Program-made: the position numbers and the translations under genes | Shown here: positions 36,401 through 63,799 of the stretch, one piece after another | How the letters are laid out: every line of letters starts with the position of its first letter | Position numbering within the stretch: the stretch's first letter is position 1 | The notes under the pieces: model-generated | Database searches by the model: none | Seen by the model: only the letters and a program-made list of their open reading frames with translations | Told to the model about the DNA's origin: nothing | Assembly: GCA_024137785.1 (NCBI GenBank) | Contig: JAHRHZ010000095.1 | Span: forward strand, 1,645,851-1,709,850 | Direction: 5' to 3' | Source of the DNA: Ginglymostoma cirratum | Lineage: Eukaryota | DNA: 64,000 nt

Positions 36401-39400
36401 TCTTAATATAGGTGTTGGAGTAGGAGTGCAGCGGGGCGCTGGAGTAGGTGTGAAGCCAGGCGCTGGAGTTGTTCAACCTGGTATTGGAGTTGGTAATTTG
36501 CTGTCTTCTGAAAGATATTTTGCTCCATTTTACTTTGTTTATAGCCGATGTAATTCTGTTCTGCGCTATTTCTGTATGTGGTGTTACCACGTTATGCAAT
36601 GAAATGTCACAACTAACTGAACATTGCTACAATCATAGAATACCAGAGTCTCTTGATAATTTCATAGTTACAATTTTTTAGATGAGCATTTGCCCAATAG
36701 AGTTCAGAAATTGATCTGAGTAATTTTTGTTATTGTGGAATGTTTCTGACTCATATTTCCCAGGAATGCTGTGCGGTTGTAATCTTCCGTATTTCATGAT
36801 CAATGACATTTTTGTCATATCTATGTAGAGACAGACTTAGCTGTATTATTACAATAAATTTACTTTTCCATTTCATTCTAGGCGGAGCTGCTGCATCTAA
36901 AGCTGCCAAATATGGAGGTAAAACTACAGTTGCTAACATATATTCACTGGTCAATGTAATGATCAAATTATTATCCTTGAAGATCAAGGTAAAGCCAATT
37001 AAATGTGAAAGAGAAAAGAATTTAAATGGTGAATGTAATGGCTATGTGAGACGCATTTCCACATTAGTAACCTATACTCTGATCATTCTTGCAACATCAA
37101 AACAAAGCAAAGCTTGTGGATGCTGACAATCTGAAATTCACGAGAACAAAAAATGTTGGAGAAACTCAGCAAGTCTGGCAGCATATGTGATCTGCTTAGT
37201 TTCTCCAACAGTTTTTGTTTTCATATATTTCAGATCGCCAGCATCCACAATGTTTTGTTTTGATGTTGCAAATCTGGCAGCATATGTGATCTGCTAAGTT
37301 TCTTCAACCATTTCAGTTTTTGTGTCTTGCAATGTCAAAGTCGGTCAGATGATCTGGTGCAACCGTTAAATTGAAGCAGAAAACACCATCAAGTACTCAA
37401 TGATGTGTTTTGAAGCTTTTAGCATATTTTTTCTTTTATTTTGAAAACTGATTCTTACTAGTAACCAATTTATAAATAAATTGTTATGCTAGTTTAGTGA
37501 TTGTCAAGACACCAGAAAGCCTCATCCTTTGGATAATGTAATATCTTCTTAGATAGCTTTAATAAACCTACTCAGGCATGTTATGACACTCATCTGGAGC
37601 AGGTGGGACTTAACTCTGGGCCAGGAGGTTTAGGTTTAAGAGCACTACCACTGCACCTAATATTCCCAGTTGGTCTCCCATCCAAGCACTAACAAGGCAT
37701 AGGTCTGCTTAGTTTTTGAGATTAGGCTTTTTTAGACTAGTATGGCCATCAGTTTATTGCAGCTTTTCAGATCAATGATAACAGACAGATTGCCTCATCA
37801 AAAAGACAGCAGCTCTGAAAAATGCTGCATTTTTCCATCCCACATCTAAGAATAATACTTAGTAGCATAAGATCTTAGTTTAAACGTTGAAGTGCTGGAA
37901 TTAAAAAGGCAGCAGATTTCCTGGGGCAATTTTATTTCACTGTGTGCCACAATAGACCAAAAAAACCTTAATTTTTTTTTGCTTTAATGTTCTAAAATAA
38001 CAAGTCACTATTTTGGAATATCACATTCTTTTTTGATCTCAATGTAGGTCTTGGAGTGGGTGTGCAGCCTGGCGTTGGAGTGGGTGTGCAGCCTGGCGTT
38101 GGAGTGGGTGTGCAACCTGGCGTTGGAGTGGGTGTGCAACCTGGTGTTGGAGTGGGTGTCCCGGCTGGCATCGGAGTAGGTAAATTACTGTCTTTTGGAT
38201 GACATTGTTCTCCATTCTATTTTACAAAGAGTATATAACTCTACTTCATCCCAATTCTGTGCAAATGGAGATATCTGACTCACTTTGAAATTAATATCAA
38301 AAGCGAAAGAAAAAAGCAACAGCTGGATGCATTCATCAAGGACATTGTATGAAGAGTTATTGGATTGCCAAGAGAGTGTGCAAGTTTTCTGAATGGCTGA
38401 GATTGTACATTCTAGCAATGTCAGCCTGTGATATACCTGTCAACCAAAATTAATTGGATGGACATCATTGGTTATTGTCTGTATGGCCAAAAAATACAGT
38501 AACAGGACTATGATATCATTTATAATGGCACTCAGGGAGTTATCACACATTTAGCACAATCATTCAATGTTACTTAAAACTAAATGATCTATGTCTTCTG
38601 CAGTTAAGCAATTTAGGCACTTCCATCAACGATTAATACTTGAAGTGCCAGCATTGGACTTTGTTTTGGCATTGCTCTAGTCACCATTCACATGGGAAAA
38701 CTTTTCTGCAACTCATGCCAGTATCTTTTCCTTCTCTTTAACTTCAGTTAGACTTTCTATGGTTCTAGGCAAAGCAATAAATTTAGTTACTCCACCTAAA
38801 TCATTACCTAGAAGTAAGTCAATTCCATCCACAGGTAACTTCTGAAAATTCCTACTACCAGTGTTTCAGATGGTAGGTCACATTCTGTGTGAACTTTGTA
38901 CATAGAAACAGGTAAGTATTTTCCACCTACCCTGTTTATTAAAACATTCAATTTTTATTAAAACTGCTTTCAAATCAGTCTCTCGGAAGGAGAAATAAAG
39001 CCCTTCTCTTGCAAAACTGATGCATAACTTCTGTATCCCTTAATGTAGTTTTGGCTTTAGCTGTATCATTTGAATAAAGGATTACTTTGCCTTTCATCAA
39101 AAATCTATTATATCACTCTCCTATCCTTCACCCCTCCTGCACTCAGCGGTATTTAACTTCGGTTTCACAGTTGCAGTCAAAGCTACGATTTGGTCCGTGG
39201 TACTTACCTTGTGAGTTCCCTTTTCAGATTCTCACTTATGAAACACAGTCAGTCTTACGTGCATTTGTTGCAACTTCCAGCATTTTGAATGAAAATGTTC
39301 TACTTTGTGACAATGGAAACAATTAAGCAAATGATTCTCTGAGCCCTTACTTTCTCGTCTCAGCATGAAATCCCGGAGCATTCCCAGCTGTTTCTTCTCT

Positions 39401-42400
39401 ACTGTGACTACTTACCTTCTTTCACCCTCTCACTTCTTATCCATTTCAGGTCTATGGAGTTGAAAGAAAAAATGATTTCCTTTATGATCCACCAGTTAAA
39501 TTTATTATGCTTTACCCTTTCAAATTCACATTAGGTTTGAAGTTATTTCCTTAAATTTTGAAACTTTTGTCTTTATGCTTCAGGAACTAACTCAAAAAAC
39601 CCAGAATTGCCTTTAATACAGCATCATAATCCAAAAGAATTCCTGTGACAGTGATGCATAAATTTATAACAAATTTATCCTCTAACATTTGGCAAAATCA
39701 AAATACTAATTACTAGAAGGCAAATTTAAAATATACCAACTTTAAATTCAAAAGCACATACATAGGACAGACAGACACAAAAGTTATCTTAGAAATATTG
39801 TGTGGTAAATGTAGGCAAAAACGACACTGTCTACAGATCAAAGTCCAAACCAAAAGGGGTGGAATGAGTAGAGTTTCTTCACAGTTCGTTTTTGAATTGC
39901 AGCTAGTTGTTGTTAACTGCGGCTGGCTTCAATTTGGTAGTCGGTCAGTTAGATTTAGATCTTGGCTGAAATTGGAAGTTGTTTTTCTTTTTGTGAGGAC
40001 AATTTTATTTCTTTTCCAACTGAAAAGAGAGCGTAAAAGAAGGATCTAACATGCGTTCAAGCTTTATGGAAGTCTCTGTTCCAATTGCACCTCAGGCCTA
40101 TGACAAGCTGTACTTTATCCAAATCCTGTTGCTGGATTGCTTTTTGAAAGATGCATGATGCCATTGCGTCTCAAAAGTATCAAAATCCAGCCTCCAACAC
40201 CAAAAAAGTTAAATGTTATTGTGTAACCATTAAATGTCTACACAGTTGCACTTTTGAGTTATGAGGTAAAACTGACTCATTCATTCTCTACAACAGAGTA
40301 GTCCAAATTTCTGTTTTCCAGTTCATATTTCCAAACAAAATATCTGTGGTCATTAGAGCTTAACCTGACTTACTTAGAGCTCAATTTCTGAATAGACTCA
40401 ATGCTTGTTAGGAACAGCTCCAAGTATATTATTGTAAATACCAGGGTAAATTCAAGTCAGGATGCCCAAGTTTACATGTTTATGGGTAATGAAACACCGT
40501 CAGCAAGAGTTCCAATGGAATAGTAGCAATATTTTTTAAAAAGTATTCTCTGACGGTTTTTGACATCATTGGCAAGGCCAGCATTTGTTGCCTGTCCCTA
40601 ATCATTCATGAACTGAGCTGCACACAAGACCATTTCAGACAGCTCTTAAGAGTCAACCACATGGCTGTGGATCTAGAGCCACATGTAGACCAGACTGAAT
40701 GAGGATGACAGATTCCCTAAAAAGACATTAGTGACCAGAAATAACAGCCGATGATAATCTCATGGCCGCCAATGCTGAGATTACCTTTCATTTCTGGATT
40801 TTATTAATTGAATTTAAATTCCACCAGTTGCCATAGTAAAATTTGAACCTATACCTCAAAGCATTAGCATAGATCTCCAGATTACTGGATGAGTGCTATT
40901 ACTACCACCATCATCAGAAGATATAATTTAAGATTTTACTTCCAGCATAAATTGGTACCCAGAACATCTGATGCCATTCTAATCCTCAATAACAACAAAC
41001 ACTTTAGTATTCACTGCTGCTTGTATCAGAAGATCAGAGTCCATTTTTCTTCTTGTCAGGGAGTCAAAAGTTAGAGGCAATAACCATAAAACAGTGGCCA
41101 ATAAATCCAATAGAGAATTCAGAATATGACCTTTTACCCAAGGAGTGACTAGAATGTGGAACTGCCCCATACAATTATTTGTTGAATCAATTAACATGCA
41201 TGGATTTAAGGTAAAAATAGATAAAACAAAACACACGGGAGAAAATCAAGAATACCTTTACATGGTATAATTAAGCGCAAGCTTTTTAGACATACAGTAT
41301 ATTCACCGGTCTCTGCTTGTACAGAGAATGTTCTCATGTATGGGACATGTTCGCTATGCAGAATGGCTATATGACAATTGACTGATTTTAGGGCAGGTGA
41401 ACAACCAAAGTAATAGCAGTACTACCACTTTTAGTAAGATGTTTAGGTAGGTTGTACAGGTCAGGAGAGAATATCAAGAAGAATGTCAGGACCTTGATTT
41501 GGAAGCTATTATTGAATGTTTCTTCTTCAGCTGTAGGACCTATACACACATACTATGAGTAAGATAAGGAAGCAGATTCTAATCCATCACAACTAGAATG
41601 GAGTTCTATCCCAGTTGAGCCACACCACCCATTCAGCAAACTAATCTAACTGGTTCCTCATGATGTCCATGCACTTTCCATGCATGCTGTAGATCAGAAC
41701 AAAGAATGAAGATGGTAGAGTCTGTCATTTTCTTTTTATCACATATCTGACCAAGAATCTCACTCACTCTTATTGCCTGTCATTGGCAGGTTTGGAATGA
41801 TTGGAAGGTTTACAGGTTGATAGTATGAATGTAGCTTCCTTGGCCATCAATCCTACAGTAGGACTTGAACTCAGAGCCCAGTGAACAGCAGGAACACTAC
41901 CCACTATGCCACGATTCCTCCCATCTATTCAATATATTCATATAAGGTTTTTTTTTAAATCTGTTTGGTAATTAAATGTAAACCAAGCTCAGCACACTTC
42001 TTGAAACATTTGAGAACATCGACCTAATTCTAATGTGTTAATTAAACTTGACAAGAACTGTCTGAATTTGGAAAGAAATGCTTCATCACAAAGTTGATAT
42101 TCACCCAATGGAATTCAGGTTAACATCAGTTCAACTTGGACAATTCATTTTAATGAGCAAGATTTCAGAGAATCTATTTTTCAGGAATGTTGTGTTGCTG
42201 TAATCTTCAGAATGCTTCTTGTTATGCATATATGAGGACACTGTAGCTGTAACTGTATCAAAACTTACTGATTTTTCTGTCACTGCAGGTGCAGCTGCTC
42301 CATCTAAAGCTGCTAAATATCAAGGTAAGTCCACCATCTGCTAACAGATTCGCTGGTCTAAATAATTGTCAAATCATTATTTTTGAGGATTAAAAAAAGT

Positions 42401-45400
42401 TTATTGTAAAAGAGAGAGGAATTTTCCTGATCCATGTTATAACTAAATGAGAAGCATTTTAATGTTGCTAACCTATACTCTGAAAAATCATGCAACATCA
42501 CATTGGCAGGATTATCCAGCACAACCACTAATATGAGACAGAAAATAATATCGGCATTCAATAATGGGATGTGAACTTTTACCAATGCTGATTTTTTTTT
42601 CCAAAACTGCCATTGACGGAGAGCAGTTTCTAAATACACAGTTAAATGATTTTAGTGAATGCTAATGTTGGCAAGAACACCAGAATGCCTCATTCTAGTT
42701 TGGGTAGTATCATCAGACCGTTTCTTTTTATCCATATAAACAGGTAGATTGGCATCTATTGTCTCATCCAAAATATGGCACCTCTGACAAAGCAATGCTT
42801 TCTCCCTCTGACATTGAAGAATAATAGTTAGGGACAATAACATTTTAACTTAACTTCTGAAATCAATGTCTGGATATATAAACAGGATTTCGAATTTGCT
42901 TTTTTTCCACCATTGGCAATAATTAGCTGAAAAAATCTATAAGGTCGCATTGCTTTATGTAAAGCCTTTCACTATTTCTAATTATTAAATTCATTCTATC
43001 TGATTTAGGCCTTGGAGTGGGTGTGCGGCCTGGTGTTGGAGTAGGAGTCCAGCCTGGCGCAGGAGTTGGCCAGCCTGGCATCGGAGTGGGTAATTTACTG
43101 TTTCTTCAGATACATTTTCTTCTATTATACTTTTCATAAAGTGTGTAAATCAGTCTTATACCATTTCTGTGCAAATGGAGGTACCCGATACAAGACAAAA
43201 TTAATTTCTGAAGCAAAAGAAAAGAACTGCGCATTGATGCTTTCATCACTGATGCAGTGTGGAAATGTTCATGCCTTGCCACTCATAAGTCTGTTAAAAG
43301 AACATGTACATGTTCTGAGTAGCTGAGGTTTTCCACTCCCATTTTACTATCCTGGCATATTCCTTTCTGCTAAAATTGTTTGGACAACATCATGCATTGT
43401 TGATTGTAAAAATAAAACGGGCTTCATGACTGCATCAGAAAGTACAAGTCTTCTGCAATCCATTGAAATGGTCTTGTTAATCCCCAAATGTCTCTTGAAT
43501 GAAGAATATTTGCATTTTTTGATTTGACTCACTTCAATCAAAACATTCCCACTTGCAGGATCTAGGCTGATTATCGTCCATTAAAAGACCAAAATTTGGA
43601 TTTTGTCTTGTGTCTGGAGGATAGCCCATAGTGATTTATGAGAAACTTGATAAACATGATATATTCAAGTGCAAATAAGTTGGATGTGAATATAGGTGAC
43701 ATGGTTAGTAAGTTTGCAGATGACACCAAAGGCCGACGAGTGGCAGATGAAGTTTGATTTAGATAAACGTGAGGTTTGCATTTTGGTAAGGCAAATCAGA
43801 GCAGGACTTACACATTTAATGATAGAGCCCTAGGGAGAGTTGCCTAACGAGACCTAGGAATGCAGGTGCATAGTTCCTTGAAAGTGGAGTCATAGGTAGA
43901 CAGGGTGATGAAGAAGCAGTTTGCACGCTTGCCTTCATTGGTAAGTGCATTGAGTATAGGAGTTAGAATGTCATGTTGCGGCTATACAGGACATTGGTGA
44001 GACCACTTTTAGAATACTGCATACACTTGTGGTTGCCCATCTAAAGGAAAGATGTTGTTAAACTTGAGAGGGTTCAGAAAGGATTTACAAGGATGTTGCC
44101 AGGACAGGAGGGTTTGAGTTATTGGGACAAGCTAAACAACTGGGGCTTTTCTCCCTGGAGCATCTGAGGCTGAGGGGTAATAATATATAGATTTATAAAA
44201 TCATGAGGGACATGGATAGAGTGAATAACCAAGGTCCTTTTCCCCTAGGTGGTGAAGTCCAAAACTACAGGGCATAACGTTTACAGTGAGAGGGCAAAGA
44301 TTTTAAAAGGACCTTAGGGATAACATTTTCATGCAGAGGGTGGTGAATGTATGAAACAAACTGCTCAAGAAAGTGGTGGGGTACAATTACAACATTTAAA
44401 AGGCATCTGGGTGGGTATATGAATAGGAAGGGTTTGAAGGAATATGAGCCAAATGCTGGCAAATGAGACTAGGTCAGATTGGGATATCTGGTCAGTGTGG
44501 ACGAGTTGGTCCGAAGGGCCTGTTTCCGTGCTGTATGCCTCTATGACCCTATACTTGTACTTATATAGGAAGTTCCCCAAGAGGCTTTAGAGTTTTCAGA
44601 TTCAACTTAAGTTGTTCACTTAAGACTGATAGCTTCCCATTTAGTTCTTTTTCAGTGTTGTAATCTTCTGTTTGAATCTTTTATGATTGGAGGCATTACA
44701 AATGTCAGATTTGTGTTTGCCTACGATTAGTTCAGATGTCCTCAGCGCAATTTGAGCAAAACAATGCCATTACCATTGCACATATCCACACATTACGGTT
44801 TCCAAATAATTAATTTACTTGGCGGTTCGAGTGCGCAGAGTTGGTAGTGATATGGCAGTTAGCTGTATCATCATGGGGTGAGGCTTCATCAGAAGATAGA
44901 TGAGCATTTTCAACAAAATGGTCAGCATTATCGGGAAGGAGTGGTGAGTTATGTCAGCAAGGTGAGCTGTGAGGAAGGGCCGTGAGGAGGCTGGTGTATA
45001 ATGTGGTTTCAGTTGGAGATGCAGTGCTTTGATACTCCACTCTATTTACTTTGAGGTGCACTTCTGATCAGGCTTTATGCTGCAAAATCAGTGTAAAACC
45101 AGGGTGAGTATAAGGAACCCTGTCCAGGTCTGCATGTTTTTAGGCTCTGGGGAGGCTCGCACTAAGGCCTTCCAGCTGCCCACAAAGCCATTCCTAGAAT
45201 GGAAGCCCCTAGTTCCAATGTAAAGTGGTTCCCTGAAACATCTGATCAGATTGAGACCGTCTATCTCAGTGATCATCTTTTCATTCGCTAATGATGGGGT
45301 TTGGAAGATCTGGACAATTTTTTGGGCAGTCCAAAGTTGTAGACCATAAATCTAAAAGTGACACCAATTACACTAAGAATAGTTAAAATATGAGTAGTTG

Positions 45401-48400
45401 AGGCAATTAGCATCATGCATTTAAGGAAAAACAAACACAAAAAGCGGAAGAATATCTGGGCATATTGAAGTTAAACAAGAGTTTTAAGTGAGTTCTCGTA
45501 AATCAGGCTGTCTTATTTTGCACGATGTCAGGTAAAATCTGACAGACTTTGGGATGGATAAAAATAATGCCATTATCAGAACTTTAAATGAAATGCTTAG
45601 TCAAATTCTATGTGTTAGCAGAGAGTATCAAGAAAAGTGTAAGAAAACCTGACTTCAAAAGCTATGTTACGTTCTTCCAAAGCAGAAAACCGTTCTTACG
45701 ATATTTTATAAGGATTGAGTCAAGTTCACCACACGTCTTGGAATATTTTGAGAGTTCACAAATGTTAATTTAGTTAAAGAAATATAAGACAGACTTGCCA
45801 CAGACACACAAGAGAAACTCTTAAGTTCTTAATCACAATTTTCAGCAGTTGGACATTCACCCAATGGATTTTAGAAGTTAATATTCACATAATTTGAGCA
45901 ACTTGCATTAATAAGCATAATTTCAGAGAACTTGCTTCCCGAGAGTGCTGTGATTTTGTAATCTTCAGGAATATGTGTTATTATACCTGTATACAGACTA
46001 ACTTGCCTGGACTAATACCTTTTCTGATTTGCTCTCATTACAGGTGGAGTTGCTGCATCTAAAGCTGCTAAATATGGAGGTATATCTGACCACTACTGAC
46101 CTATACACTGGTCAACGTGGCTGTTAAGTTATTATCTTTGAGGATTGAGAAAAGCCACTTCAGTTTTAAAAAGAAAGAAATTTTCCTGCTATGTGTAATG
46201 GCTATATGTGAGAACTATTTCCAAGTTAATGACCTATTATCGCTGATTCTTGTAACATCACATTGATCAATTGGTGTTGATTAGCAGCAAGTTCATAAAT
46301 ACACAGTCAAGTCATTTTAGTGATGTTAATGTTGGCAAGAACACTAGAATGCCTCACTCTTCTTTGAATAGTGGTGTTGAACCTTTTATATCCATATAAG
46401 CAGGCATATTGACATCTATTGTCTTGTCTAAACGAGAGTACCTCTGGCAATGAAGCATTTTCTCCATCAGACATGGAAAATAATGATTAGAGAGAATAGC
46501 ATTGCATCTTAATTACTGAAATTAATGTCTGGAATTAATAAAGAATGAATTCTGTGTTCACATTACTTCATTGTTGGTCACAAATTGGCCAATAAATCCA
46601 AAGGTTGCATTAAAGTTTATAAAATGTTTTAATTACTTGTAATTTTTATTTCCTTATTATCTCAAACTAGGTCTTGGAGTAGGGGTGCAGCCTGGAGTTG
46701 GAGTGGGAGTCCAGCCTGGAGTTGGAGTGGGGGTGCAGCCTGGCGTTGGAGTGGGTGTAAAGCCTGGCGTTGGAGTGGGTGTGCAGCCTGGCGTTGGAGT
46801 GGGTGTGCAGCCTGGCGTTGGAGTGGGTGTGCAGCCTGGCATCGGAGTGGGCGTGCAGCCTGGCATCGGAGTGGGTAAATTATTGTCTTTTGAAAGACAT
46901 TTTCGTCCACTATATTCTTTTTGTAAAGTGTATAAACCTATCTGATTCCGATTCTGTGCAAATTGAGATATCAACACAAATTGAAATTAATATAAAATAT
47001 AAAATAAAAGTAACTGCAGCTGGGTACATTCAGTATGCAAAGGTTGATGGATTAAAGCTTATAAGTCTACAAAAGAACATATTCGTGTTCTGAATGGCTG
47101 AGGTTTTCCACTCTTGAATATTTCTTTCCATGAGAATGAATTGAAAGTAGAGTAATATAATTGCAATGTCAGGTATGGTGGTACTTTAGATCGCTCAATT
47201 AATAACACTGTAAGGGTACAAAAACTGGGTTTTAAGAAGAATTCTTTCATTTTCTGCAATCAATCAAAGCAGACACTTTGTCAATCCCTAAAGGTCTCTT
47301 CCGTGTAGAATATTTGTATCTGGCGATTCACTCACATTACTCAAAAATTCACATTTGCGATTAAAGAATTAAGAATTTGGATTTTGTGCTGAAGCCAATA
47401 GATCCCAAACATGGAAATAAAAGACTTCCCATATTGAGTTGATAGATCCTTGATGTCTATGATAAATTCAAGTGAAGGAAGATCCCTAAAATACTTCAGG
47501 GTTTTCAAAGTTCCTTGTTCATAGAAGATTGATAGCATTTCTTTTTTTGTGTTATGATAATCATAAGTTTGAATTAGTTAAGTTTGAATATATAAACAAA
47601 TTTAAAATTTCAGTGTTATTTTCATCCACTAGTTTCATCTTCCTACATCAGGGTGTATGCAAGACGATGCTATCCCATTTTACTCTACAATGGATATGAA
47701 TATCACTGGAATAAAGGAAGATAGGTGTACGAGCTAGCACTTTGAGGTAGCTAAAATATTCTAGATTATGGCTGATCACCTTTCCCAATAACCTGGATGT
47801 TGTTAGTACCTAGAAATCTATCAAAATCTCTGTCTTCAGTATGCTTAATGTCAAAGTTTCATCAGCCCTCTTTTGGAATAGAGATTTACCATTCTTAGTG
47901 AAGAAATTCCTTCTCATCTCAATTGCAAAGGCCTGCCCTATATGCTGATATAGTGTCTCCTGGTTGTAAACTCCTTTTCCTCCCACCCCACCACCCCACC
48001 TAAATTCCAGGGAAACATTCTTATTGCGTCCAAACTTTATTGAATTTTATCTGTTTCAGTGGGCTTATCTGTCATTTTTCTTTACTCTAGTCAATACAAG
48101 CCTATCTCCTCAATCACTTTTCTAAGGGCAGTTCTACCACTCACGTATTAATCTAGCGAACAATTGCTACAAACCCTCCATACCAATATATCCTTCCTTA
48201 CATAAGAGGGTTCTAAACTGTACACAATATTCCAAATGCAGTCTAACCAAGGGACTGTACAACTGCAACAAGACATCTTTATTCCTGTACTCAAATACTG
48301 TTGTGATAAATGCCTGTTTACTACTTGTGTTTCTAATTGCATATCACAGCTACATTTTAGCTTTCAATGACTTATGGAACAAGTACAACAAAGGTCATTG

Positions 48401-54400: not shown

Positions 54401-57400
54401 ATCTAAATTCTACAGTGTTATTATTAGACCATTTATTAAACCTGCTTCATTACACATTACCAGATTCAAAATAGCCTGATTGCTGATTGCATCCAAAGTC
54501 ATTGTACTAGAAAATTATCCCGAACATGCTGTATCAATTCTTCCTCATGGCTACCTGTGCCCACTGATTTACCAGAAATATATGAAGATTGAAGTCACCC
54601 ATGATTCATGTTTTACCTTTTTTTACATGCCCTCATTATTTTCTGATCTATTCTGTATCAGTCCAGTTGTTGTTAAGGGGCCTGTACACTACTCTCACCA
54701 ATGTCTTCAGCCCCTTGTTATTTGTTACTTCCAACCACAAAGATTCTACATCGTCCAATCCAAGATCATTTCTAACATCAAGGAGATGTATTGCAAATTA
54801 AGCACAAACTTTATTAAATTTCAAGCCTATATGTCAGTCCCCACCACATAAATGGGGCATGTTCTTGTGAATGATACCTGTCCACCCCACAGTGCTTGAT
54901 GTGACAGCTGGCAGACATTACGGCAAGTGAGCACGCGTTGTAATGCCTGTGTTGCCACTTTTAGTGCTTAAGAACTTCTTTGGGTCAGCTACAATGTCAG
55001 GGAAGATGTAAAAGACTTTGATTTGGAAACTACTAGTAAGTGCTTGTAATATTTTTAAAATGCAGTTCTTATTTTGAATAGATTCAGAGATGGTAGGAAC
55101 TGCCGATGCTGGAGAATCTGAGATAACAAGGTGTAGAGCTGGATGAACANNNNNNNNNNNNNNNNNNNNNNNNNNNNNNNNNNNNNNNNNNNNNNNNNNN
55201 NNNNNNNNNNNNNNNNNNNNNNNNNNNNNNNNNNNNNNNNNNNNNNNNNNNNNNNNNNNNNNNNNNNNNNNNNNNNNNNNNNNNNNNNNNNNNNNNNNNN
55301 NNNNNNNNNNNNNNNNNNNNNNNNNNNNNNNNNNNNNNNNNNNNNNNNNNNNNNNNNNNNNNNNNNNNNNNNNNNNNNNNNNNNNNNNNNNNNNNNNNNN
55401 NNNNNNNNNNNNNNNNNNNNNNNNNNNNNNNNNNNNNNNNNNNNNNNNNNNNNNNNNNNNNNNNNNNNNNNNNNNNNNNNNNNNNNNNNNNNNNNNNNNN
55501 NNNNNNNNNNNNNNNNNNNNNNNNNNNNNNNNNNNNNNNNNNNNNNNNNTGCTGCTTGGCCTGCTGTGTTCATCCAGCTCTACACCTTGTTATCTCTTAC
55601 TTTTAATACTTCTTTTTGATATTAAAACTGAACTAAGCTTCTCATCTTCCTACCTTCAAAATCCTTCCCCTCAAGCATATCTGAAGTCAGAGATCACTTT
55701 CTTAAATCTTACATCTAGAGATTGGGTATCATTCAAGTCCATTTGGACTGCACCTCTCCTACATTGGATGAGCAATCTAATCCATTCTACCCAAGATCAA
55801 CTACCATTCTCACCACCACCCTCAAACCAAGAAACCACTTTGAGCTGTGACCTAGTCCCAATCCTTACCACCCAACTGGAAGCAAAGCCTGTCAGTCAGA
55901 TGGACATCCGGATAATGGGTCTGATCAGGACAAGATGCATGTTGTGGACACTGTTATGTAAGGGCTTCAGAACTCTGGCATAACCTTGTGGTGATGTCAT
56001 TGAGCTGCGCATCGCTCAGCTTAAATAACAAGTTTGGGTAGAGTTTGGCTGTAGCAGCATACACTACATTTAGAATGAGAGAGACTTGAGTACATATGAA
56101 CATAAACACAGAAAGAATCAAAACAGCCCCATTTGCATTTTTTGTAGCCTGATACTCTCAATTAATTAAAATTTAGAATTTTGTGATGAGTTTTGAGAGT
56201 TACCAATAGTTCTCAAAATATGGAAATGGAGGATTGCTTATAACTTACTACAGTTTTGATATACCATAACTACAAGTTCAAGAAGATCTAAAAGACTAAA
56301 GTCCAAAAAACTAAAGACAAAAGATTAAGATTCATGGTTAACTTAAAACTGGTAATTACAACATTCTGCATTACTCGCCTTTGTCTTGTTGCATTCATCT
56401 ATTGGAATTTGATGAGTCCAAAGGTACAACAAATGGAACATGTCCATGATTGTCCCTCATTAGATCAAACTTTCATTTTCAGCTCCACTGACTATGTCCT
56501 AGCAAACCAGTTTCAAAGTCTTCATCTTCATTTTCAAAAGCCTCTTGCAATAATGATTCATATGAAGTTCCCCCGGCGTAAATGTTGAAATCCCAGAATG
56601 TAATTTTGAAAATCAAATCTGATTTTAAAAATTTGGACTTGTTCCAAAAACACAACAGGTTCACTGCTGTCTTTCAGAGAAATAAACCCGATTTTATTCC
56701 TGATCTGCTAAAATATGATTCCAGTCCCACTCCAGTTTCATTCATAAATTACCTAGCAAGCCATTCAATTCTGCTGGTACCTTCTCTCGGCCACAAGGTA
56801 GAAGCAATAAGTTTTGGCTTTCAGTTTCATCCATCATCAACAACCAATAATGAATAATCATACTCTGCACTTTAAGAATTCTTTCCAAGCCACTCAGACT
56901 TGTTATCCAAATTGGGTTCTGGGTACCAACTACTGGCAGCTGTTATTTGCTGTTCACTGTAATCACTGTTTCCTTCTATGTTGATTCTGTGCCACTGTCT
57001 AATTACCAGTGATAGGTGATAGATCACCAGAGAGCCTTAACCAATAAAGGTGTTTATTTTGGCAAACAAAGTATAGGTTATTGCATGAGAACAATGGATA
57101 CAATTAACATTAACCAGTCAGACATAGTTATAACCATCAGGAACCAGTTATGTACACGTAAAAACAAAACGCTGCGGATGCTGGAAATCTGAAATAAAAA
57201 CAAAGTGCTGGAGAAACTCAGCAGGGGTTCTGGTGGCATCTGTAGAGAGAGAAATAGTGTTAATGTTTCAAGCCTGATGTGACTTTTCCAGAACTGTAGG
57301 TTTAATTGTCACATAACATAGTTTGATATATCTGACAACGTTTAATCTAAAAGTTCTGACCATAGCAGGTAAGACTGATCTGTTCTAGAATTCCTGCAAC

Positions 57401-60400
57401 AATCAAGCAATTTTTGCAGCAGTGGTTATTCTGCTAATCAAACAAAGTTTGAAGCTTTTGTTTTCAAAGCCTGTTTATTTTCTTTACTATTGGGATGTGA
57501 TGAGACTGACAAACTAGTATTATTAATCAAGCACAATTAGGGATGTAAAATGATTGCCTTGCCTGCGATGTTTACGCCACATGGGCAGAATAAATTTCAG
57601 TAGTATTCAGTATCAAATGTGTAGAGCTTGACTGGATCTTCTGACAAAGACAATTAGTATCAATTACCTTTCTCCTAACTATCACATTAATAAGTACCAT
57701 GAAAAGACATTTAGAGATTATTTTCTTTAAATTCAAACTTGGTTCAACTTTCCAAATTAATTTTTAACAAAAAGTCTGTTTTACCTTTGTTGATTCACAT
57801 AATACACCCATTAAAGACAGAAGAAAAGGGATTTGTTGAGCAATGCTGCCTACAAGCTAATGAATTAAAAAGCAATTAAAGAAAATTCATGTTGTCTAAA
57901 TTTTTATCATGGTATATTTCATGTTCTCATCATAACACAAATGGCCCTCCTGAAGGACAGCTAATTTTTTTTTGGGCAGGCATTTCTCTTTGTAACACTG
58001 TTTGACATTTGGTGACTTGATTCAATGATTTTATTTTTTAAAAATTATCTGGGAAATAATTCCACAGAGGCCAGTATTTCATCACCAAGTCAGCCTTTAT
58101 TTAAACATGGAGAATCTTTGACAATGACCCAGCTTCCTCAGAGCCAGCTCTCAGAGTGAACAGAACTTCTGACAGTCCTTATCAGTCAGCCAAGGCTCCC
58201 AGACTGGACCAGATTAACAGCCCTTAACAATCAGAGAACTCATATTCTATGAGGTCCACCTAGCTGACCTCATTACAGTCACTTCAATTTACTTTTGAAC
58301 TCCACTCCCTTTCCATACTGTATGCATCTATGACTCTATATGGGACTAGTTCAGTTTTGGAAACTTGTTCGGCATGGACAAGTTGGGCCAAAGAGCCTGT
58401 TTCCATTCTGCAAGCTTCTATGACTCTACAACTAGTTTGGTCAATTCTCAACCTTTTCTCTGCGATACAATTTATTGAATGAACAACTGTCCCGCAGAGA
58501 ACAGTTAACCATATAATATTCTATGTGCACATTTTTTGTATCAGATTTCCTTCAGAATATTAGACATGTACACCTGCATATTTATTGTTTCTATTTATAT
58601 CAGTGTTACAACATCTAGGGTACTTTTAACTACTTTTTTAAAAATTTTATTTGTTTCCCAGGCAACATGCATTATCATTTCCTGTCAAAAATATGACAAA
58701 CTCTGATGCACTAAAATGCTTCCCTGGATGACTGGCAGATTAAACATTGCTGAAAATAAGTAATTTCTCATGTGTGGATCACCTAAGATAGGAAATGTGA
58801 TGCACTTATCTGAATTTAACTTCTTTAATATTTTACTTGTTTTCAGAACATCCTCAAATGTACCCTATTTTAAGATGATGCACAGCTCTGTTAGGTTATA
58901 ACTGAGATTGGGTCTAGTCTGAGGGCAGACTGACCCATTCCATTTCTGATTTGCTTTGTTTCAACCTGTCTTGTAAATTAGTCAGTCGCCACAAAAACTT
59001 CTCAACCATAAGGGTTTCTAATTCTCATTCTCTCCTTCCATGCCTTGCCAAGTAATTCCAATTGAAATTTTCTGTCTGAAAGAAATCTTAATTTCCAATC
59101 TCTGCCTTCAGGCAACCTTTCTATGTTATCACAATTAATGGAATCCTAGCTGGGATGGAAAATAGCAACAAGATTTACCTTTTCTTTGTGGAAATTGATT
59201 ATTCATTCCTACAGTTTTCATCCAACATTCCATTGTCTTAACTGATTCGAATTTTAAGTTCTTACGGGCAATTAATGTCAACCACCTGTTTCTTTTAACC
59301 TTAACAATGCCATGAACAAAACTTAACAACATGATTGACAAGACACAAACAAGCAAGAGCATAAGGAGTGTTTACTGGGGGCCTTTTTGTGGTGCAGTAG
59401 TAGTGTCCTGTCCCCTGGGCCAAGAGACCCAGGTTCAAATTCCACCTTCTCTAGAGGTGTCTAGTTACATCTCTGAACAGGTTGTTCTCGGGGGGAGAAA
59501 ATAAAGGACTGCTGGCTTTGTATATGGCACCTGCAACTCCAGAGGTTCTACATTGCTAATATCACACCTTGATCCTTCCAGTTCTTATATTTGAAAATAT
59601 GAGGTAATTTCTTTGTTCATTTGGAAGTAAATCAATAAGGTCCATCATCTTGATCAAATCTAGAAATCAGCCAATATTTAAAGAATGAGTATCATACACT
59701 ATTTGGACACATAAATTCTTGAACATTTAGGAGTATTTACAAAATATTAATGTATCACACACTGATGATTAAATTTCACTTTATTGCATCACACATTGCA
59801 GAATTTTGTGCGTAAACATGAAGATAAACTCACTGCCCTTGAAGTTTAACTATTGCGTGACCAGCTTTTCTTAGAAACCTGGATAGCTTGTTGCCCTCAA
59901 ATTGAAAATTATGGAGACAATAAATGGATCAATTTCTTCCATTTTGCTTCAAACTTCAAAAGGTCCAATTGGGATGAACTTCATGCTGCAACCATAAAGC
60001 AGAATTCTTTTAATTTAAAAGGGAGATAGAGCAAACCCAGGAACTATAGACAACTTAATTTAACATGGATTATAGGAAACAGAATTAAATCTTTACTCAG
60101 AAGATATAATAAGAAAAACATTTAGAAACAGAAAGAGATAATAATGAATGTTCAGTACAGCTTTCAAATAGTAGATCATGTTTGAACAACATTGAGGATT
60201 ATTTGAATAAGTAACAGAAAGACCAGACAAGAATAATACAGTAGATATAATGTACATATATTTTCAAGGTTTTTGCTAAGGTAATGCATTGTAGACACGT
60301 GAGTAAGATTGAATGACGCAGAATTGGAAAAATAATAGATAATACTGGAGACAAAGTTGAAAGTAGACTGTAGGGGTTAATGTTGTTGCTGAAACTGAAA

Positions 60401-62591
60401 AAAGTGTCAAATGATATTCCACAAGTCTCATCATTGGGAACAGTGTTCATGTTTTACATGAACAATTTGGAGTCAGGAAACAGGAGTGGACATCACTGAA
60501 TCAGAGATTTATATTAATATTGAGGAACACTGTGACAAATTGTAAATCAATGTTAATAAACTTACAAAAAGGGCATGTCATTGTGAAATTGATTTCAGTT
60601 AAGATAAATGGAAGGTCACTCAGTAAGAAGAATATAGAGGTCACTCTCTGGAAATAAGAATACAAGTGGGTTAGAAAGCAGAAGGATCTAAAGGTACAGA
60701 TGAGCAAATCACTAACGATAATGATACAGACTATCAAAAGGGGAAAATAGCATTGGGTTTCATTTCCATAGGGAGAGGATGGAATAACGGACCTTTGTAT
60801 TAAACACAGTTGAACCTTGTTGAGCCCACATGGTCACGGTTCTGCTCTCCGTACAGTATATGCAAGCATTGGAGAAGATGCAAATAGTAACTAAAAAGGG
60901 TGACGCCAGAAATAAAATGAGAAACTTATCAGGTAAAACTCAACAAACCAGGGCTGTCCTCTCTAGGGAAAGGAAAGTTGAGGGATAACCTGGTTTTGGT
61001 CTTAAAGATCATGAAAGGAATTGTTAGGGTTGTAGAAAGAGGGCAATGGATTGTTTTCAACATAATGTAATTTTGATTGGAGTAACCAGAAGTGTGTGCA
61101 TCATTCCTGCATTCATCCTTTTTCCCAAACAGTTGCAATTAAAATTTCAAATGCCAGCAACATGCATAAGAGATACTTGCAATGATGTGAGAGCTGAAGC
61201 CTTTGAATGGCTGAATGCACTATCAGTTGACAATTCTGCAGCTACAGATGGGCTGTAAGAGGAACCTGCTGGCAAAATTGCATCACTGTCAAAACTTCTA
61301 TACCAACTTCGCTGCTATTAACATAAGTTTTGATAGGTCAAATGTTGCAGGGATGATTTTCATAGTTAACTTGTAAGCTGCAACATGTTACTTGTAAATA
61401 TTTAGCATTACATTAGTTTCACTTTATTCGTGTATGTAATAGATGTTAATGATAGAAGTTTCAGGGAAGAAAATTGCTGTTAATCTTTTGAATGCCTCTT
61501 GTCATGTCTGTATACAGATAGTCTGTTGATTCTGTACCATTGCAGGTGGACTTGCCCCATCTAAAGCTGCTAAGTATAGAGGTAAATATTCCTACTTCTG
61601 ATATAATCATTAATCTGTATAATCATCAAATTATTGTTTTACATTTGAGAGTGTAATGTAGTTTTATTCTGTTAAAGAGATTAATGATATTTGTAAATTA
61701 ATGATTTACTGGGTGAAATTTAATGTCCTTCTCTTTGAGGAGTTTGGCAGTTGAGGGTGGGGAGGCTTTTGACTCTGAATGGAGAGTGGTGATTGGCTTC
61801 CCATCTCCATCATAATTAAGTTCATCGTGTGAAGATCTGTGGGTGTACGCAGCCTCTAAATTTAACCAAATGATGAACAGGGCTCAGCATGTGAGGGGTA
61901 TAATAATCAAACTCATAGATGGTTGATGGGAGGACTGTAGTGGTGCAATGGTCGTGTGCCTACTTCTGAACCAGGAGGGCTGAATTCAATTCCCATCTGC
62001 TTCAGATGTGTGGAATAATATCTCTGAGCAGATTGATTGGAAAGTACCTGATTGCTTGTATGCTTTCGGGTAGAGGGGGCATCACTAAAAGGTACTCAAT
62101 GCCTGACCAAGGAACCCAGCATTTAGGATTGGAGATTGTTGCCGAGAGCCGCCTCCCTGCTTTTGCTGTTGATCTGTATTCATATCTCCATGATCAGACT
62201 CCACAATCCCTTCTTGCCATCACTCACCACATTTAGCCAAGCCTTGGATGTGTGCCCTATCAGCAACAATCACTGCCTCTCCATTGGTACTGCTCTTCAA
62301 ATAACCTGCTGTTCCCGGATTGACTGGAGAAACCTAGTGGGTGCGACCTCTGCCCACAGGATCCTTGAATCCAGGGAAAGCTTGACACTGTCCGCTTAAG
62401 TGCATGAGAATGCCTCTTTTGTGGAAGGCTATGTGGATCTCTCACTGGCTCTTCAGCCAGTGGGCAAGAATCACATCTTTAAAAACTGTCCAATATTTCT
62501 GATTATTAAATTCTTGTAATCTCAATTGCAGGCCTGGGATTGGGTGTGCAACCTGGCGTAGGAGTAGGTGTTCTGCCTGACATCGGAGTGG
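3392..62591 (+). CDS. eln: Tropoelastin-like (elastin) gene, internal 15-exon portion; both ends lie outside the window
   Basis: 15 AG/GT-flanked phase-1 exons total 912 nt and join in frame without stops. KAAKY cross-link exons alternate with G/V/P hydrophobic exons, the established tropoelastin architecture. Exon letters below are local to this window. Confidence 0.9.
6198..6332 (+). mobile_element. Solo Penelope-like terminal repeat with hammerhead motif
   Basis: Near-identical to the arms of the element at 30307-31067; flanked by the direct repeat atgcacat (6190-6197 and 6333-6340). Confidence 0.8.
6204..6231 (+). ncRNA. Minimal type I hammerhead ribozyme motif
   Basis: CUGAUGA-A-GGGU(UUAG)GCCC-GAAA-C-GUC; short helix I AUUU/AAGU. 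Confidence 0.65.
6925..7385 (-). mobile_element. Degenerate CR1 3' fragment
   Basis: Minus ORF ends [13 protein letters not shown], the typical CR1 ORF2 C-terminus. Confidence 0.7.
7560..8940 (+). mobile_element. Highly degenerate Penelope-like element with an internal insertion
   Basis: [17 protein letters not shown] leads into a decayed GIY-YIG region; ends in a degenerate terminal repeat near 8850-8940. Confidence 0.5.
9558..9593 (+). CDS. eln: Elastin exon B, hydrophobic [12 protein letters not shown]
   Basis: ttgtgctgttaatacag|GAGCGATTCCAGGAGCTGTTCCAGGGGCTATAGCAT|gtacag; 36 nt; weak donor; flanks resemble exon E. Confidence 0.7.
10883..11118. repeat. Long near-perfect inverted repeat
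   Basis: 10908-10979 is the reverse complement of 11022-11093; outer extension acagcacaatgcttat/ataagcattgtgctgt. Confidence 0.9.
11120..11740 (+). mobile_element. Non-autonomous retroposon-like repeat
   Basis: GC-rich body; ends gtgacaataaagctaattcagttcaattc (polyA signal plus short-repeat tail). Confidence 0.45.
11890..14100 (-). mobile_element. Decayed Gypsy-type LTR retrotransposon pol remnant
   Basis: ORF 12683..12940 has ADTSCTGLG and YTLIEKE (RNase H-like). The minus strand near 13330-13377 reads FNRLPFG..APEIF. Confidence 0.75.
14830..15130 (+). mobile_element. 3' tail of a CR1/L2-group LINE
   Basis: Colinear with 34980-35290, ending aactagggatgagaaataaatgcttgcccagcc. Confidence 0.7.
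15382..15426 (+). CDS. eln: Elastin exon C, hydrophobic (G/C)[14 protein letters not shown]
   Basis: atattgcag|GTGGTCCAGGAGCT...GTTGTACCCG|gtaagt; 45 nt. Confidence 0.88.
16190..18430 (-). mobile_element. Degenerate CR1 LINE
   Basis: Minus ORFs with [21 protein letters not shown] and endonuclease-like [10 protein letters not shown]. Confidence 0.8.
17247..17337 (-). mobile_element. Truncated Penelope-like terminal repeat inserted in the CR1
   Basis: Reverse-complement match to 6205-6295; first C of CUGAUGA lost at the junction. Confidence 0.8.
18638..19405 (+). mobile_element. Penelope-like element 3' fragment with inverted terminal repeats
   Basis: EHLCSI...[36 protein letters not shown] (GIY-YIG C-terminus); 18638-18790 is an inverted copy of the 3' end. 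Confidence 0.85.
20364..21360 (-). mobile_element. Penelope-like element of a second family (RT C-terminus plus GIY-YIG), frameshifted
   Basis: [15 protein letters not shown]; [30 protein letters not shown]; REFLEA. Confidence 0.9.
20402..20443 (-). ncRNA. Mutated hammerhead ribozyme motif
   Basis: Minus strand UGCA-CUGAGGA-U-GUUACCA(AGCA)UGGUAAC-AAAA-C-AUC-UGCA; GAAA box reads AAAA. Confidence 0.65.
21852..21887 (+). CDS. eln: Elastin exon D, KA domain [12 protein letters not shown]
   Basis: tctttgtcatttcag|GTGCAGCTGCTGCAGCCAAAGCTGCAAAATATGGAG|gtaaat; 36 nt. Confidence 0.92.
22135..22700 (-). mobile_element. CR1 3' fragment
   Basis: Colinear with 31680-32250. Confidence 0.7.
22720..23300 (+). 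mobile_element. Degenerate CR1 RT fragment
   Basis: ILAWIEDWL and RFADEMKIG motifs. Confidence 0.7.
23320..25500 (-). mobile_element. Degenerate CR1/L2-group LINE, same family as 34140-35310
   Basis: Reverse-complement colinearity, e.g. ccttgatgccaca versus tgtggcatcaagg; shared 3' tail. Confidence 0.75.
26476..26838 (+). mobile_element. tRNA-derived SINE with LINE-derived tail
   Basis: A/B-box-like head (tggcctactgg...ggtttgaatcc); tail gggcaattagggatggataataaatgctg shared with the LINE end at about 35235-35290. Related minus-strand copies at about 25560-25860 and 40545-40910. Confidence 0.75.
27480..28100 (+). mobile_element. CR1 3' fragment
   Basis: LYRALVK...[19 protein letters not shown]. 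Confidence 0.75.
28543..28563 (+). CDS. eln: Elastin microexon E, GAPGGIT
   Basis: ttgtgctattaatttag|GTGCTCCAGGAGGTATAACAG|gtacaa; 21 nt; an alternative in-frame donor follows 28554 (gtataa). Confidence 0.7.
30408..30435 (-). ncRNA. Minimal hammerhead motif, antisense arm
   Basis: gacgtttcgggcctaaacccttcatcag, reverse complement of the 6204-6231 motif. Confidence 0.65.
30974..31001 (+). ncRNA. Minimal hammerhead motif, sense arm
   Basis: ctgatgaagggtttaggcccgaaacgtc. Confidence 0.65.
31228..31263 (+). CDS. eln: Elastin exon [13 protein letters not shown]
   Basis: ttgtgtctttaatacag|GTGCTGAAGGAGCTGTTCAGCCTGGAGTTCCGGGAG|gtaagg; 36 nt. Confidence 0.87.
31662..33930 (-). mobile_element. 5'-truncated young CR1 LINE (RT)
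   Basis: ORFs 32646..33953 and 31743..32636 ([26 protein letters not shown]) separated by one stop; short-repeat tail (aaagaac)n. Confidence 0.95.
34140..35310 (+). mobile_element. CR1/L2-group LINE 3' fragment
   Basis: [14 protein letters not shown]; [17 protein letters not shown]. Confidence 0.85.
35425..35850 (-). mobile_element. Degenerate CR1 3' fragment
   Basis: Colinear with other minus-strand CR1 tails (gaaggaggccatt..., ttctccaaggaaaacaatcccagc). Confidence 0.6.
35900..36225 (-). mobile_element. Deu-domain SINE-like remnant (AmnSINE1/SacSINE1 group)
   Basis: gtttaacatctcatcc...cagcactgcctc and tacttttggagtggcattactgttg resemble the reverse complement of the Deu consensus as recalled from memory. 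Paralogous copies at about 37490-37860, 42620-42830 and 46280-46490. Confidence 0.6.
36412..36492 (+). CDS. eln: Elastin exon [28 protein letters not shown]
   Basis: atcttaatatag|GTGTTGGA...ATTGGAGTTG|gtaatt; 81 nt. Confidence 0.9.
36882..36917 (+). CDS. eln: Elastin exon H, KA domain [12 protein letters not shown]
   Basis: tttcattctag|GCGGAGCTGCTGCATCTAAAGCTGCCAAATATGGAG|gtaaaa; 36 nt. Confidence 0.92.
37661..37748 (-). pseudogene. Degenerate 5S rRNA-derived sequence
   Basis: Minus strand ggccatactagtct...ctaagcag...ttagtgcttggatgggagaccaactgggaata follows 5S rRNA including its C box. Confidence 0.8.
38048..38179 (+). CDS. eln: Elastin exon I, GLGVGVQP(GVGVGVQP)3[12 protein letters not shown]
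   Basis: atctcaatgtag|GTCTTGGA...ATCGGAGTAG|gtaaat; 132 nt; 24-nt coding tandem repeat. Confidence 0.92.
42289..42324 (+). CDS. eln: Elastin exon J, KA domain [12 protein letters not shown]
   Basis: tttctgtcactgcag|GTGCAGCTGCTCCATCTAAAGCTGCTAAATATCAAG|gtaagt; 36 nt. Confidence 0.92.
43009..43089 (+). CDS. eln: Elastin exon [28 protein letters not shown]
   Basis: atctgatttag|GCCTTGGA...ATCGGAGTGG|gtaatt; 81 nt. Confidence 0.9.
43670..44547 (+). mobile_element. CR1 3' fragment
   Basis: aagtttgcagatgacaccaaa (KFADDTK); 3' UTR ending gggcctgtttccgtgctgtatgcctctatgac. Confidence 0.85.
46044..46079 (+). CDS. eln: Elastin exon L, KA domain [12 protein letters not shown]
   Basis: ctctcattacag|GTGGAGTTGCTGCATCTAAAGCTGCTAAATATGGAG|gtatat; 36 nt. 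Confidence 0.9.
46671..46874 (+). CDS. eln: Elastin exon M, 8.5 copies of G[LVI]GVGV[QK]P
   Basis: atctcaaactag|GTCTTGGA...ATCGGAGTGG|gtaaat; 204 nt; overlaps ORF 46685..46945. Confidence 0.93.
47750..54850 (-). mobile_element. Older minus-strand CR1 fragments, split by the plus-strand CR1 at 49531-53248
   Basis: The two sides join as ...cccaact|ctgtgttaaattagttagccag; ttggtgtcatccataaactt is the FADD-equivalent on the minus strand. Probably more than one element. Confidence 0.65.
49531..53248 (+). mobile_element. Near-full-length CR1 LINE: ORF1 SGNH-esterase, ORF2 APE endonuclease plus RT; disrupted
   Basis: ORF1 [27 protein letters not shown]; endonuclease FNARS, YRPP, MGDFN, SDH; 572-aa RT ORF with KFADD. 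Frameshifts near 50110, 50590 and 51445 and a stop near 50535. Confidence 0.96.
55084..55596. mobile_element. Penelope-like insertion with inverted termini spanning the assembly gap
   Basis: gagataacaaggtgtagagctggatgaaca left of the gap and its reverse complement right of the gap. Confidence 0.75.
55150..55549. other. Assembly gap (400 N)
   Basis: Run of N. Confidence 1.
57160..57296 (-). mobile_element. Degenerate Penelope-derived short repeat
   Basis: gctgcggatgctggaaatctgaaataaaaacaaagtgctggagaaactcagc; relatives at about 5265-5395, 6745-6850 and 37110-37320. Confidence 0.6.
58050..58287 (-). mobile_element. Solo-LTR-like repeat
   Basis: TG...CA termini, minus-strand AATAAA (ctttatt at about 58095), about 240 bp; family recognised from memory only. 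Confidence 0.5.
59376..59485 (+). mobile_element. Short tRNA-derived SINE
   Basis: tggtgcagtagtagtgt...ggttcaaattcc; relatives at about 61930-62040 (+) and 37570-37660 (-). Confidence 0.65.
59990..61080 (+). mobile_element. Very old CR1 RT remnant
   Basis: aacccaggaactataga (NPGNYR); attccacaag...ttggga (PQG-like); no intact ORF. Confidence 0.55.
61546..61581 (+). CDS. eln: Elastin exon N, KA domain [12 protein letters not shown]
   Basis: ctgtaccattgcag|GTGGACTTGCCCCATCTAAAGCTGCTAAGTATAGAG|gtaaat; 36 nt. Confidence 0.9.
62532..62591 (+). CDS. eln: Elastin exon [21 protein letters not shown]
   Basis: atctcaattgcag|GCCTGGGA...ATCGGAGTGG|gtaatt; 60 nt. Confidence 0.88.
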
Positions 62592-63799
62592 GTAATTTAC
62601 TGAAAAACATTTTCATCTATTAATATTAAAATTTATCTTACTATTATTCTGTGTAAATGATGCTGTCTGGGCACACTTTCAAATTAACACCAAAGGCAGA
62701 AGGAAAATTGTAACTGTAGATTATTGCCATTGTGAAGGATGCTGTAAGGGAAGGTTAATAAATTCAGTTTATAAGTAAATGAACATTTATCATTTAATGT
62801 GCTGAATGGCTGAAGTTTTACATCGTTGTGACACCAGCCTGGGATACTCCTACCCATTGTAATTAATCAAAAGAAAATCACAAGGTTGAGGTGGCACAAA
62901 CAAAATTTCGGAATTAATGATGAGTAACCTCAGTTATAGTGGGAATCAGAGAACTAACATAGCTTAAGTAACACTGTAAGAGTGCATTAAAAGCAGTCGA
63001 TTTAGGGTTTCAGCAGGTAGAAAGAGAAACAATCAATTAGTGCCTAAGGAAAGTATCAACCCAGACCAGGTTTCACCCACAAGTTTGATGTGTTTCTGTG
63101 CAGGTATGGAGCAAATAAGCTTTAATTGTCAACATGTTGTGAAACCAGCAAAAACCAAACGGACTTTGGTTTTTTGAGCTGTATGTATTCTTTAGTCAGT
63201 GGAAAACTCCTTGACACAAGGGTCTTCCACTAAAAATATATTAAACCTAAGATTCTGATTTTTTACTATGTTCATGTTCTTCCTGGAACTCACCAGATAT
63301 CACAAGGAAAAAGGATAACAGAATCTGATGAGGCTGAATAATTGGGAAGCCAAAATCTGAAAATTGCTTTCTTGCCAAAGGTCTTGATCTGAGAGTATGC
63401 TTTCTTTGCTTTCAAGGTTTCTCAAGATTTTGACAGTAATTTCTGAAATTTGAAATTTCCTTTTGATCTTCTCTTCCAAGTTGCCTGGCTTCCCAGCAGC
63501 ATGGCATCCATATCTTTAGCTCTGCTCTGGACCACTGATAAGGAGAAAAGGGAGCAGCAAAGCAGCAGAACCATGACAAGGAAGAACAATAGTAACCTTT
63601 TCCTCAACCACCCATGCTGGGGTACCAGCTGAGGAGGCAATAACTCCAACAGAATAAATATATAAGCAGAAAATTCACTCCCTGAAAATGATTGAGAACT
63701 ATTGCCTCAGGTCGCTCATGAAGCTGATTGCAGTCTATTGATCAGATAACATTCTCTGATATTACTATGATTTTTAAGGAACAAAGCATTGAAATCAGG

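Follow-up and report, generated by a model that had tools for sequence, protein, structure and literature searches.

In the window analysed here, a stretch of 64,000 nucleotides of the Ginglymostoma cirratum contig JAHRHZ010000095.1, several exons repeat an octapeptide of the type GVGVGVQP. The locus raises the question which protein these exons belong to, and whether the glutamine that recurs before the proline of the repeat is special or a trait of one lineage's version of a known domain.

The repeat unit and its exons

The octapeptide repeat was recovered between positions 36412 and 62591 with a six-frame scan and Tandem Repeats Finder. Its 24-nt unit encodes G-h-G-V-G-V-X-P and was found in five spliced exons of the window and in a sixth beyond the window end; the five in the window have AG..GT flanks and are in phase 1. 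The exons are listed below with window positions, strand and evidence.

31228..31275, plus strand: eln exon F, upstream of G; 16 aa, already with one VQPG; joint 31275>36412 (4 reads in run X12)
36412..36492, plus strand: hydrophobic exon G; 27 aa, 2 full octamers (X = Q, K) and one 7-residue unit; joints on both sides
36882..36917, plus strand: KA cross-link exon H; 12 aa; exon prediction and read joint 36492>36882
38048..38179, plus strand: hydrophobic exon I; 44 aa, 5.5 units; joint 38179>42289
42289..42324, plus strand: KA cross-link exon J; 12 aa; exon prediction and read joints
43009..43089, plus strand: hydrophobic exon K; 27 aa, 2 full octamers (X = R, Q) and one 7-residue unit; joint 42324>43009 (7 reads)
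46044..46079, plus strand: KA cross-link exon L; 12 aa; joint 46079>46671
46671..46874, plus strand: hydrophobic exon M; 68 aa, 8.5 units (7 Q, 1 K); joints 46079>46671 and 46874>61546
61546..61581, plus strand: KA cross-link exon N; 12 aa; joints 46874>61546 and 61581>62532
62532..62591, plus strand: hydrophobic exon O; 20 aa, 2 full octamers (X = Q, L); joint 61581>62532
66885-66944, window-equivalent positions: sixth octamer exon, just past the window end

At a period of 24, Tandem Repeats Finder reported 8.5 copies at 46674-46876 and 5.5 copies at 38051-38181. The first-pass annotation had described exons G, I, K, M and O as made of the 24-nt unit, with 8.5 copies in M, and this is borne out by Tandem Repeats Finder, the exon calls and spliced reads. 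The pattern G[VLIA]G[VLI]G[VL][QKRL]P matched 17 times over the six frames of the window, while the same pattern gave 0 matches in 50/50 simulated windows (order-2 Markov); it had 0 matches in the upstream 200 kb and 0 beyond +70 kb downstream. The six exons hold 21 full units, just two apiece in exons G, K and O, and nine of the 21 read exactly GVGVGVQP. Residue X, before the proline, is Gln in 16 units, Lys in two, and Arg, Leu and Pro in one each, and is polar or basic in 19/21. The earlier description of X as Q, K or R thus holds in that all three are present, and has to be widened by the single Leu and Pro.

The host gene and its transcripts

As judged from sequence, the octamer exons belong to the replicated region of an elasmobranch tropoelastin gene (eln). 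This identity follows from the alternation of KAAK and hydrophobic exons, the match of the terminal exon to catshark, and a LIM-kinase neighbour, as seen in the window and in 200 kb either side of it on the same contig. Five KAAK exons alternate with the six octamer exons, phase-1 symmetric and with their joints in frame. Between about -121 kb and +98.5 kb the exon predictions fit the tropoelastin layout, with VPGAG/VPGVG exons and a pair resembling the central region, besides KAAK exons and the terminal exon; by these predictions eln extends over at least ~190 kb (window-equivalent -94 kb to +98.5 kb), and introns reach 14.7 kb (46875-61545). The predicted terminal exon (L010:4471-4515) reads CAMGKYCGRRRK followed by a stop, that is, the C-terminal Cys pair and basic tail, and is identical in 14/15 residues to the end of the catshark (Scyliorhinus torazame) fragment GCB73870.1. 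The last exons are 87-95% identical to this fragment, whose UniRef entry A0A401PL76 is named Tropoelastin. Predicted upstream exon ends, GYPVLSPKLP and GGYGIPYSA, resemble by eye GYPIKAPKLP and GGYGLPYST of amniote domains 12-13. Furthermore, LIM-kinase exons follow on the same strand, one of them ~63 kb downstream (E 1e-19), with a score that leaves the paralog unseparated (LIMK1 72.4 vs LIMK2 70.5 bits); the accessible parts of PMC12733013 and PMC12554196 describe eln as followed by a LIM kinase in fishes and amniotes.

A regular-expression search for the septin 4/5 synteny of eln, a weak test, found no septin motif within 200 kb either side. No candidate for an N-terminal signal peptide was found in the 106 kb scanned, which includes a 5-kb N stretch, and eln exon 1 may lie further upstream than this. 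An exon for catshark residues ~102-118 was not found between the last exons (window-equivalent 86242-95460, L009-L010), possibly through exon loss or as an artefact of the catshark prediction. A predicted 96-nt eln exon at window-equivalent -4560 to -4465 (L027) encodes two Trp (PWRG/PWRV), both of which a shorter acceptor would skip; Trp also occurs in the repeat of the catshark fragment, and is given as absent from amniote tropoelastins in the available text of PMC12554196. A second-locus match on contig C133 was rejected as a paralog, being a tandem repeat of high GC content whose three plus-strand frames, as displayed, all contain stops.

Seven of the nine F-to-O junctions occur as GT..AG joints among the matches listed (31275>36412, 36492>36882, 38179>42289, 42324>43009, 46079>46671, 46874>61546 and 61581>62532), H-I and K-L not being among them. 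The joints come from reads of the polyA run X12 (2-7 per joint) and from contigs of runs X3 and X6, presumed to be RNA; runs X13 and X14 yielded no eln joints. Since the M-to-N joint bridges the assembly gap 55150-55549, these transcripts carry no exon hidden in the gap. Exon O is alternatively joined to a cryptic acceptor at 63481 (window 63481-63632; two reads of X12 and one contig of X6), from which the phase-1 frame, read by eye, gives ~50 non-elastin residues and then a stop; this joint may yield a truncated isoform that lacks the C-terminal Cys domain, or may be splicing noise. A 1537-nt contig of X6 runs past KA exon H into the intron (36918-37103), which suggests intron retention or an alternative end. 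Elastin-like short frames at 9558-9593 and 28543-28563 have AG acceptors and donors that are weak or off-phase, and are possibly minor or decayed exons. Intron stretches at 30900-35200, 43800-44500, 50000-53700 and 55500-55600 are covered very deeply by reads and contigs that show many differences, and are multi-copy interspersed repeats.

Origin of the array and relation to described elastins

Intron sequence flanking the exon pairs can be aligned from pair to pair at 69-82% identity (for example 42092-42505 vs 45847-46265 and 42625-43091 vs 46290-46756), and the splice-site flanks are alike across all six hydrophobic exons, which argues that the six exons derive from one KA/hydrophobic pair. 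Cross-link/hydrophobic exon pairs would have been duplicated, spreading the repeat, and the number of units was probably altered by 24-nt tandem copying. Amniote replicated regions likewise arose by exon-pair replication according to excerpts of PMC12554196, and the same duplication process is described for devil-ray eln, with many 36-nt and 48-nt exons, in those of PMC12733013; a 48-nt exon equals two 24-nt units, a match of length alone.

Within the six exons, 17 of 132 motif triplets are QPG (12.9%). For amniotes, the accessible part of PMC12554196 (Table 4) gives QPG as 0.46% in flanking domains and leaves it outside the top-95% list of the replicated region, and by these counts the enrichment over amniotes is real; Gln is counted there as a permitted 'h' residue. 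Neither GVGVGVQP nor QPGVGVGV matched in the available text of the 86-species amniote set, where line breaks of the PDF may hide some occurrences. VQPGV was present in this text as single copies in domain 8 (14/14 matches), one of them VGVQPGVG. No tandem array of the unit was seen in the 86 amniotes, with the same reservation about line breaks. The VQPGV core of amniote domain 8 is identical to that of the shark and VGVQPGVG is an exact cyclic permutation of the shark octamer, but the amniote copy stands alone in a KP-type domain whereas the shark has an array, and the likeness is one of sequence only.

Other known hydrophobic domains offer partial parallels. The VGVAPG repeat (PGVGVA)n of human domain 24 is, like the shark array, a tandem Pro-Gly-Val-Gly-Val sequence that fits xGxxPG and lies between KA domains in an exon of the replicated region; the shark unit equals VGVAPG with Ala replaced by Gln and an extra VG, which changes the period from 6 to 8, and has lower Pro content and hydropathy. 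The nonapeptide of mammalian domain 26 (PGLGVGAGV / PGLGVGVGV; xGxPGxGxG) shares the long Gly-X alternation after Pro-Gly, but has a period of 9, no polar residue and 2-4 copies in one exon. With known Pro periods of 5, 6 and 9, the 8-residue spacing of the shark falls within the known range, between domains 24 and 26. Engineered (VPGXG)n polymers likewise carry a tunable residue in a Pro-Gly hydrophobic repeat, whereas the shark sequence has its variable residue ahead of Pro and repeats every 8 residues.

The closest known counterpart is the chondrichthyan eln of Scyliorhinus torazame. It is the same gene, in which KAAK and hydrophobic exons also alternate; its last exons are near-identical, and the hydrophobic exon that closes its replicated region keeps the same G-h-G-h-G-h-X-P period of 8 residues. 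The catshark exon at the corresponding position carries six such units in register; they are richer in Ile and Ala and have Q, R, W, W, R and Q at X (Gln in 2/6), whereas Ginglymostoma is homogenised to GVGVGVQP over six exons. Common to both species, in a comparison with a single 154-aa predicted fragment from one species, the sole other elasmobranch sequence compared, is the 8-residue period; near-uniform Gln is not.

Protein-database searches recovered no full-length vertebrate elastin. Exon M gave 56 matches against longer proteins, of which only the Scyliorhinus torazame fragment was identified as elastin and the remainder look compositional; the fragment itself gave 0 matches against longer proteins, and its residues 112-154 none in 12 candidates (0/12). 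HMMER over representatives returned 43 matches, none with elastin features except the same fragment, Pfam gave 0 domains above cut-off for either of 2 proteins, and a metagenome pattern scan gave 0 matches. The ESM Atlas contained chordate clusters, one of them named Elastin at 0.92, which we take as a lead only. A GVGVGVQP motif or polymer was not found by full-text search of an open-access library; the three papers matched were unrelated. Ten chondrichthyan tropoelastins already carry RefSeq ids according to Table S1 in the accessible part of PMC12733013.

The octamer array introduces no new gene, system or chemistry, and lineage-specific repeats are expected in the replicated region of elastin. 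The six shark exons share hPG- and GhG-type motifs with the hPGhGG style of amniotes, PG and GhG being plentiful, but differ by the absence of GG (0/132 triplets). Sharks are the earliest-branching lineage with elastin, and the style of their repeat therefore informs which features of a hydrophobic domain are essential: the shark keeps Gly alternation and an 8-residue Pro period without the hPGhGG style proposed for amniotes.

The residue before proline

Between units of different exons, pN was 0 at Gly1, Gly3, Gly5 and Val6, and pN/pS was 1.0 at position 2, 0.25 at position 4, 0.36 at X and 0.47 at Pro8; these ratios come from 21 units in non-independent pairs and are a rough guide only. To this rough guide, Gln at X is partly constrained, less so than the Gly/Val skeleton. 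A special role of Gln is weakened by the 2/6 Gln in catshark and by the single VQPGV already present in amniote domain 8. Of the lineage-specific repeat that had been proposed, with one Pro per 8 residues and a regularly spaced Gln, the elastin hydrophobic repeat and the 8-residue Pro period have stood, and the special role of Gln has lost ground with the catshark count.

We consider it probable that the octamer is an ordinary lineage variant of the elastin hydrophobic domain, spread by copying of the unit and duplication of exon pairs. From elastin biology, the Pro-Gly at every 8 residues would form transient turns and the Gly-Val chain would stay disordered and hydrated, coacervating and recoiling entropically; lysyl oxidase would cross-link the KAAK exons next to it. 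The position ahead of Pro would tolerate different residues, Gln dominating mainly because the amplified unit happened to carry it; at most, Gln might add some solubility to a unit near the aggregation threshold. In favour of the ordinary variant are the gene identity and the exon-pair duplication, the pN of 0 at the three Gly and Val6, the catshark units with their kept 8-residue period and mixed X, the single VQPGV in amniotes, and a 2P+G of the unit (0.625) slightly over the 0.6 quoted for elastomers. Against it are the pN/pS of 0.36 at X, by which Gln is partly conserved within the gene and not free, the fact that no such tandem array was seen in the 86 amniotes, the lack of GG in the six exons, and the 2P+G below 0.6 in two of the six and at 0.60 in one.

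Other readings give the residue a function of its own. The first-pass annotation had offered the Gln as transglutaminase sites, and one may imagine them as acyl donors joined to the Lys of an occasional VKPG in extra isopeptide cross-links. TG2 does link human tropoelastin to fibrillin-1 (PMC7610145, in part), and Lys occupies X in 2/21 units. However, 17 of the 18 Gln in the six exons stand directly before Pro, the remaining one being in QRGA, and the available text of PMC2193762 reports that tTG never deamidated a Gln preceding Pro, with no exceptions. The context expected of a TG2 substrate is QXP or QXX-hydrophobic, not QP. In the known TG2 link, moreover, it is tropoelastin that supplies the Lys (K38) and fibrillin-1 the Gln669 (excerpts of PMC7610145). 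AAG is one base off CAG and GVKPG is ordinary in the KP-type domain 8 of amniotes (PMC12554196, in part), so that the Lys is accounted for by simple mutation or by a use in lysyl-oxidase cross-linking. As regards TG2, the QP context thus leaves the transglutaminase idea poorly supported, and we regard it as very improbable. Equally remote is a main role in signalling, in which the unit would free VGVQPG for the elastin receptor complex, as an xGxxPG elastokine corresponding to human VGVAPG. The six exons contain 18 xGxxPG hexamers, 13 of them VGVQPG, and elastin peptides that bind the receptor share the consensus xGxxPG (PMC5915158); yet so degenerate a pattern turns up in most GV/PG repeats, and signalling would at best be a side role of a structural domain.

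A further explanation ties X to solubility. The 2P+G value is 0.625 for the unit, 0.52, 0.61, 0.63, 0.62, 0.55 and 0.60 for the six exons (two under 0.6 and one exactly 0.60), and 0.60 for the catshark segment; a boundary between elastomers and amyloids at 0.6 is quoted second-hand in the accessible part of PMC4455251. By composition, the shark octamer domains would lie at this Pro-Gly threshold, the one feature worth a bench test. Hydropathy is 0.79 for the shark unit vs 1.2 for VPGVG and 1.3 for VGVAPG. The earlier suggestion that Gln tunes coacervation for a cool body points in the wrong direction, since a hydrophilic guest residue raises the transition temperature of elastin-like polypeptides (PMC4072924, in part). 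TMAO lowers their collapse temperature (PMC8876568, in part), and an offsetting role of Gln is therefore possible. A non-aliphatic X (Gln, Arg, Lys) might thus have been selected as a solubility gatekeeper that keeps the coacervation of near-amyloid GVGVGV reversible in the TMAO- and salt-rich fluid of elasmobranchs, which would otherwise collapse the chain too early. The 2P+G of 0.52-0.63 over the six exons and 0.60 in catshark, the low hydropathy of the unit, the polar or basic X in 19/21 units, the pN/pS of 0.36 at X and the opposite effects of TMAO and a hydrophilic guest speak for such a gatekeeper, which we nevertheless hold to be unlikely. Against it, X is Trp in 2/6 catshark units and Leu and Pro once each in the Ginglymostoma gene. 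Glutamine itself is not known as an anti-amyloid residue. Chondrichthyan tropoelastins are overall as hydrophobic as those of tetrapods according to the available text of PMC12733013, which likewise argues against a gatekeeper. It seems doubtful that the shark replicated region, as the Pro-sparsest GG-free array among those compared and at the elastomer/amyloid boundary, would owe the reversibility of its assembly in urea/TMAO fluid to a selected polar residue before Pro. If this were true, (GVGVGVXP)n would provide a new elastin-like polymer scaffold of natural origin, its phase transition tuned by osmolytes. The octamer itself offers a cheap entry to the design space of elastin-like polypeptides, at a Pro spacing near the aggregation threshold.
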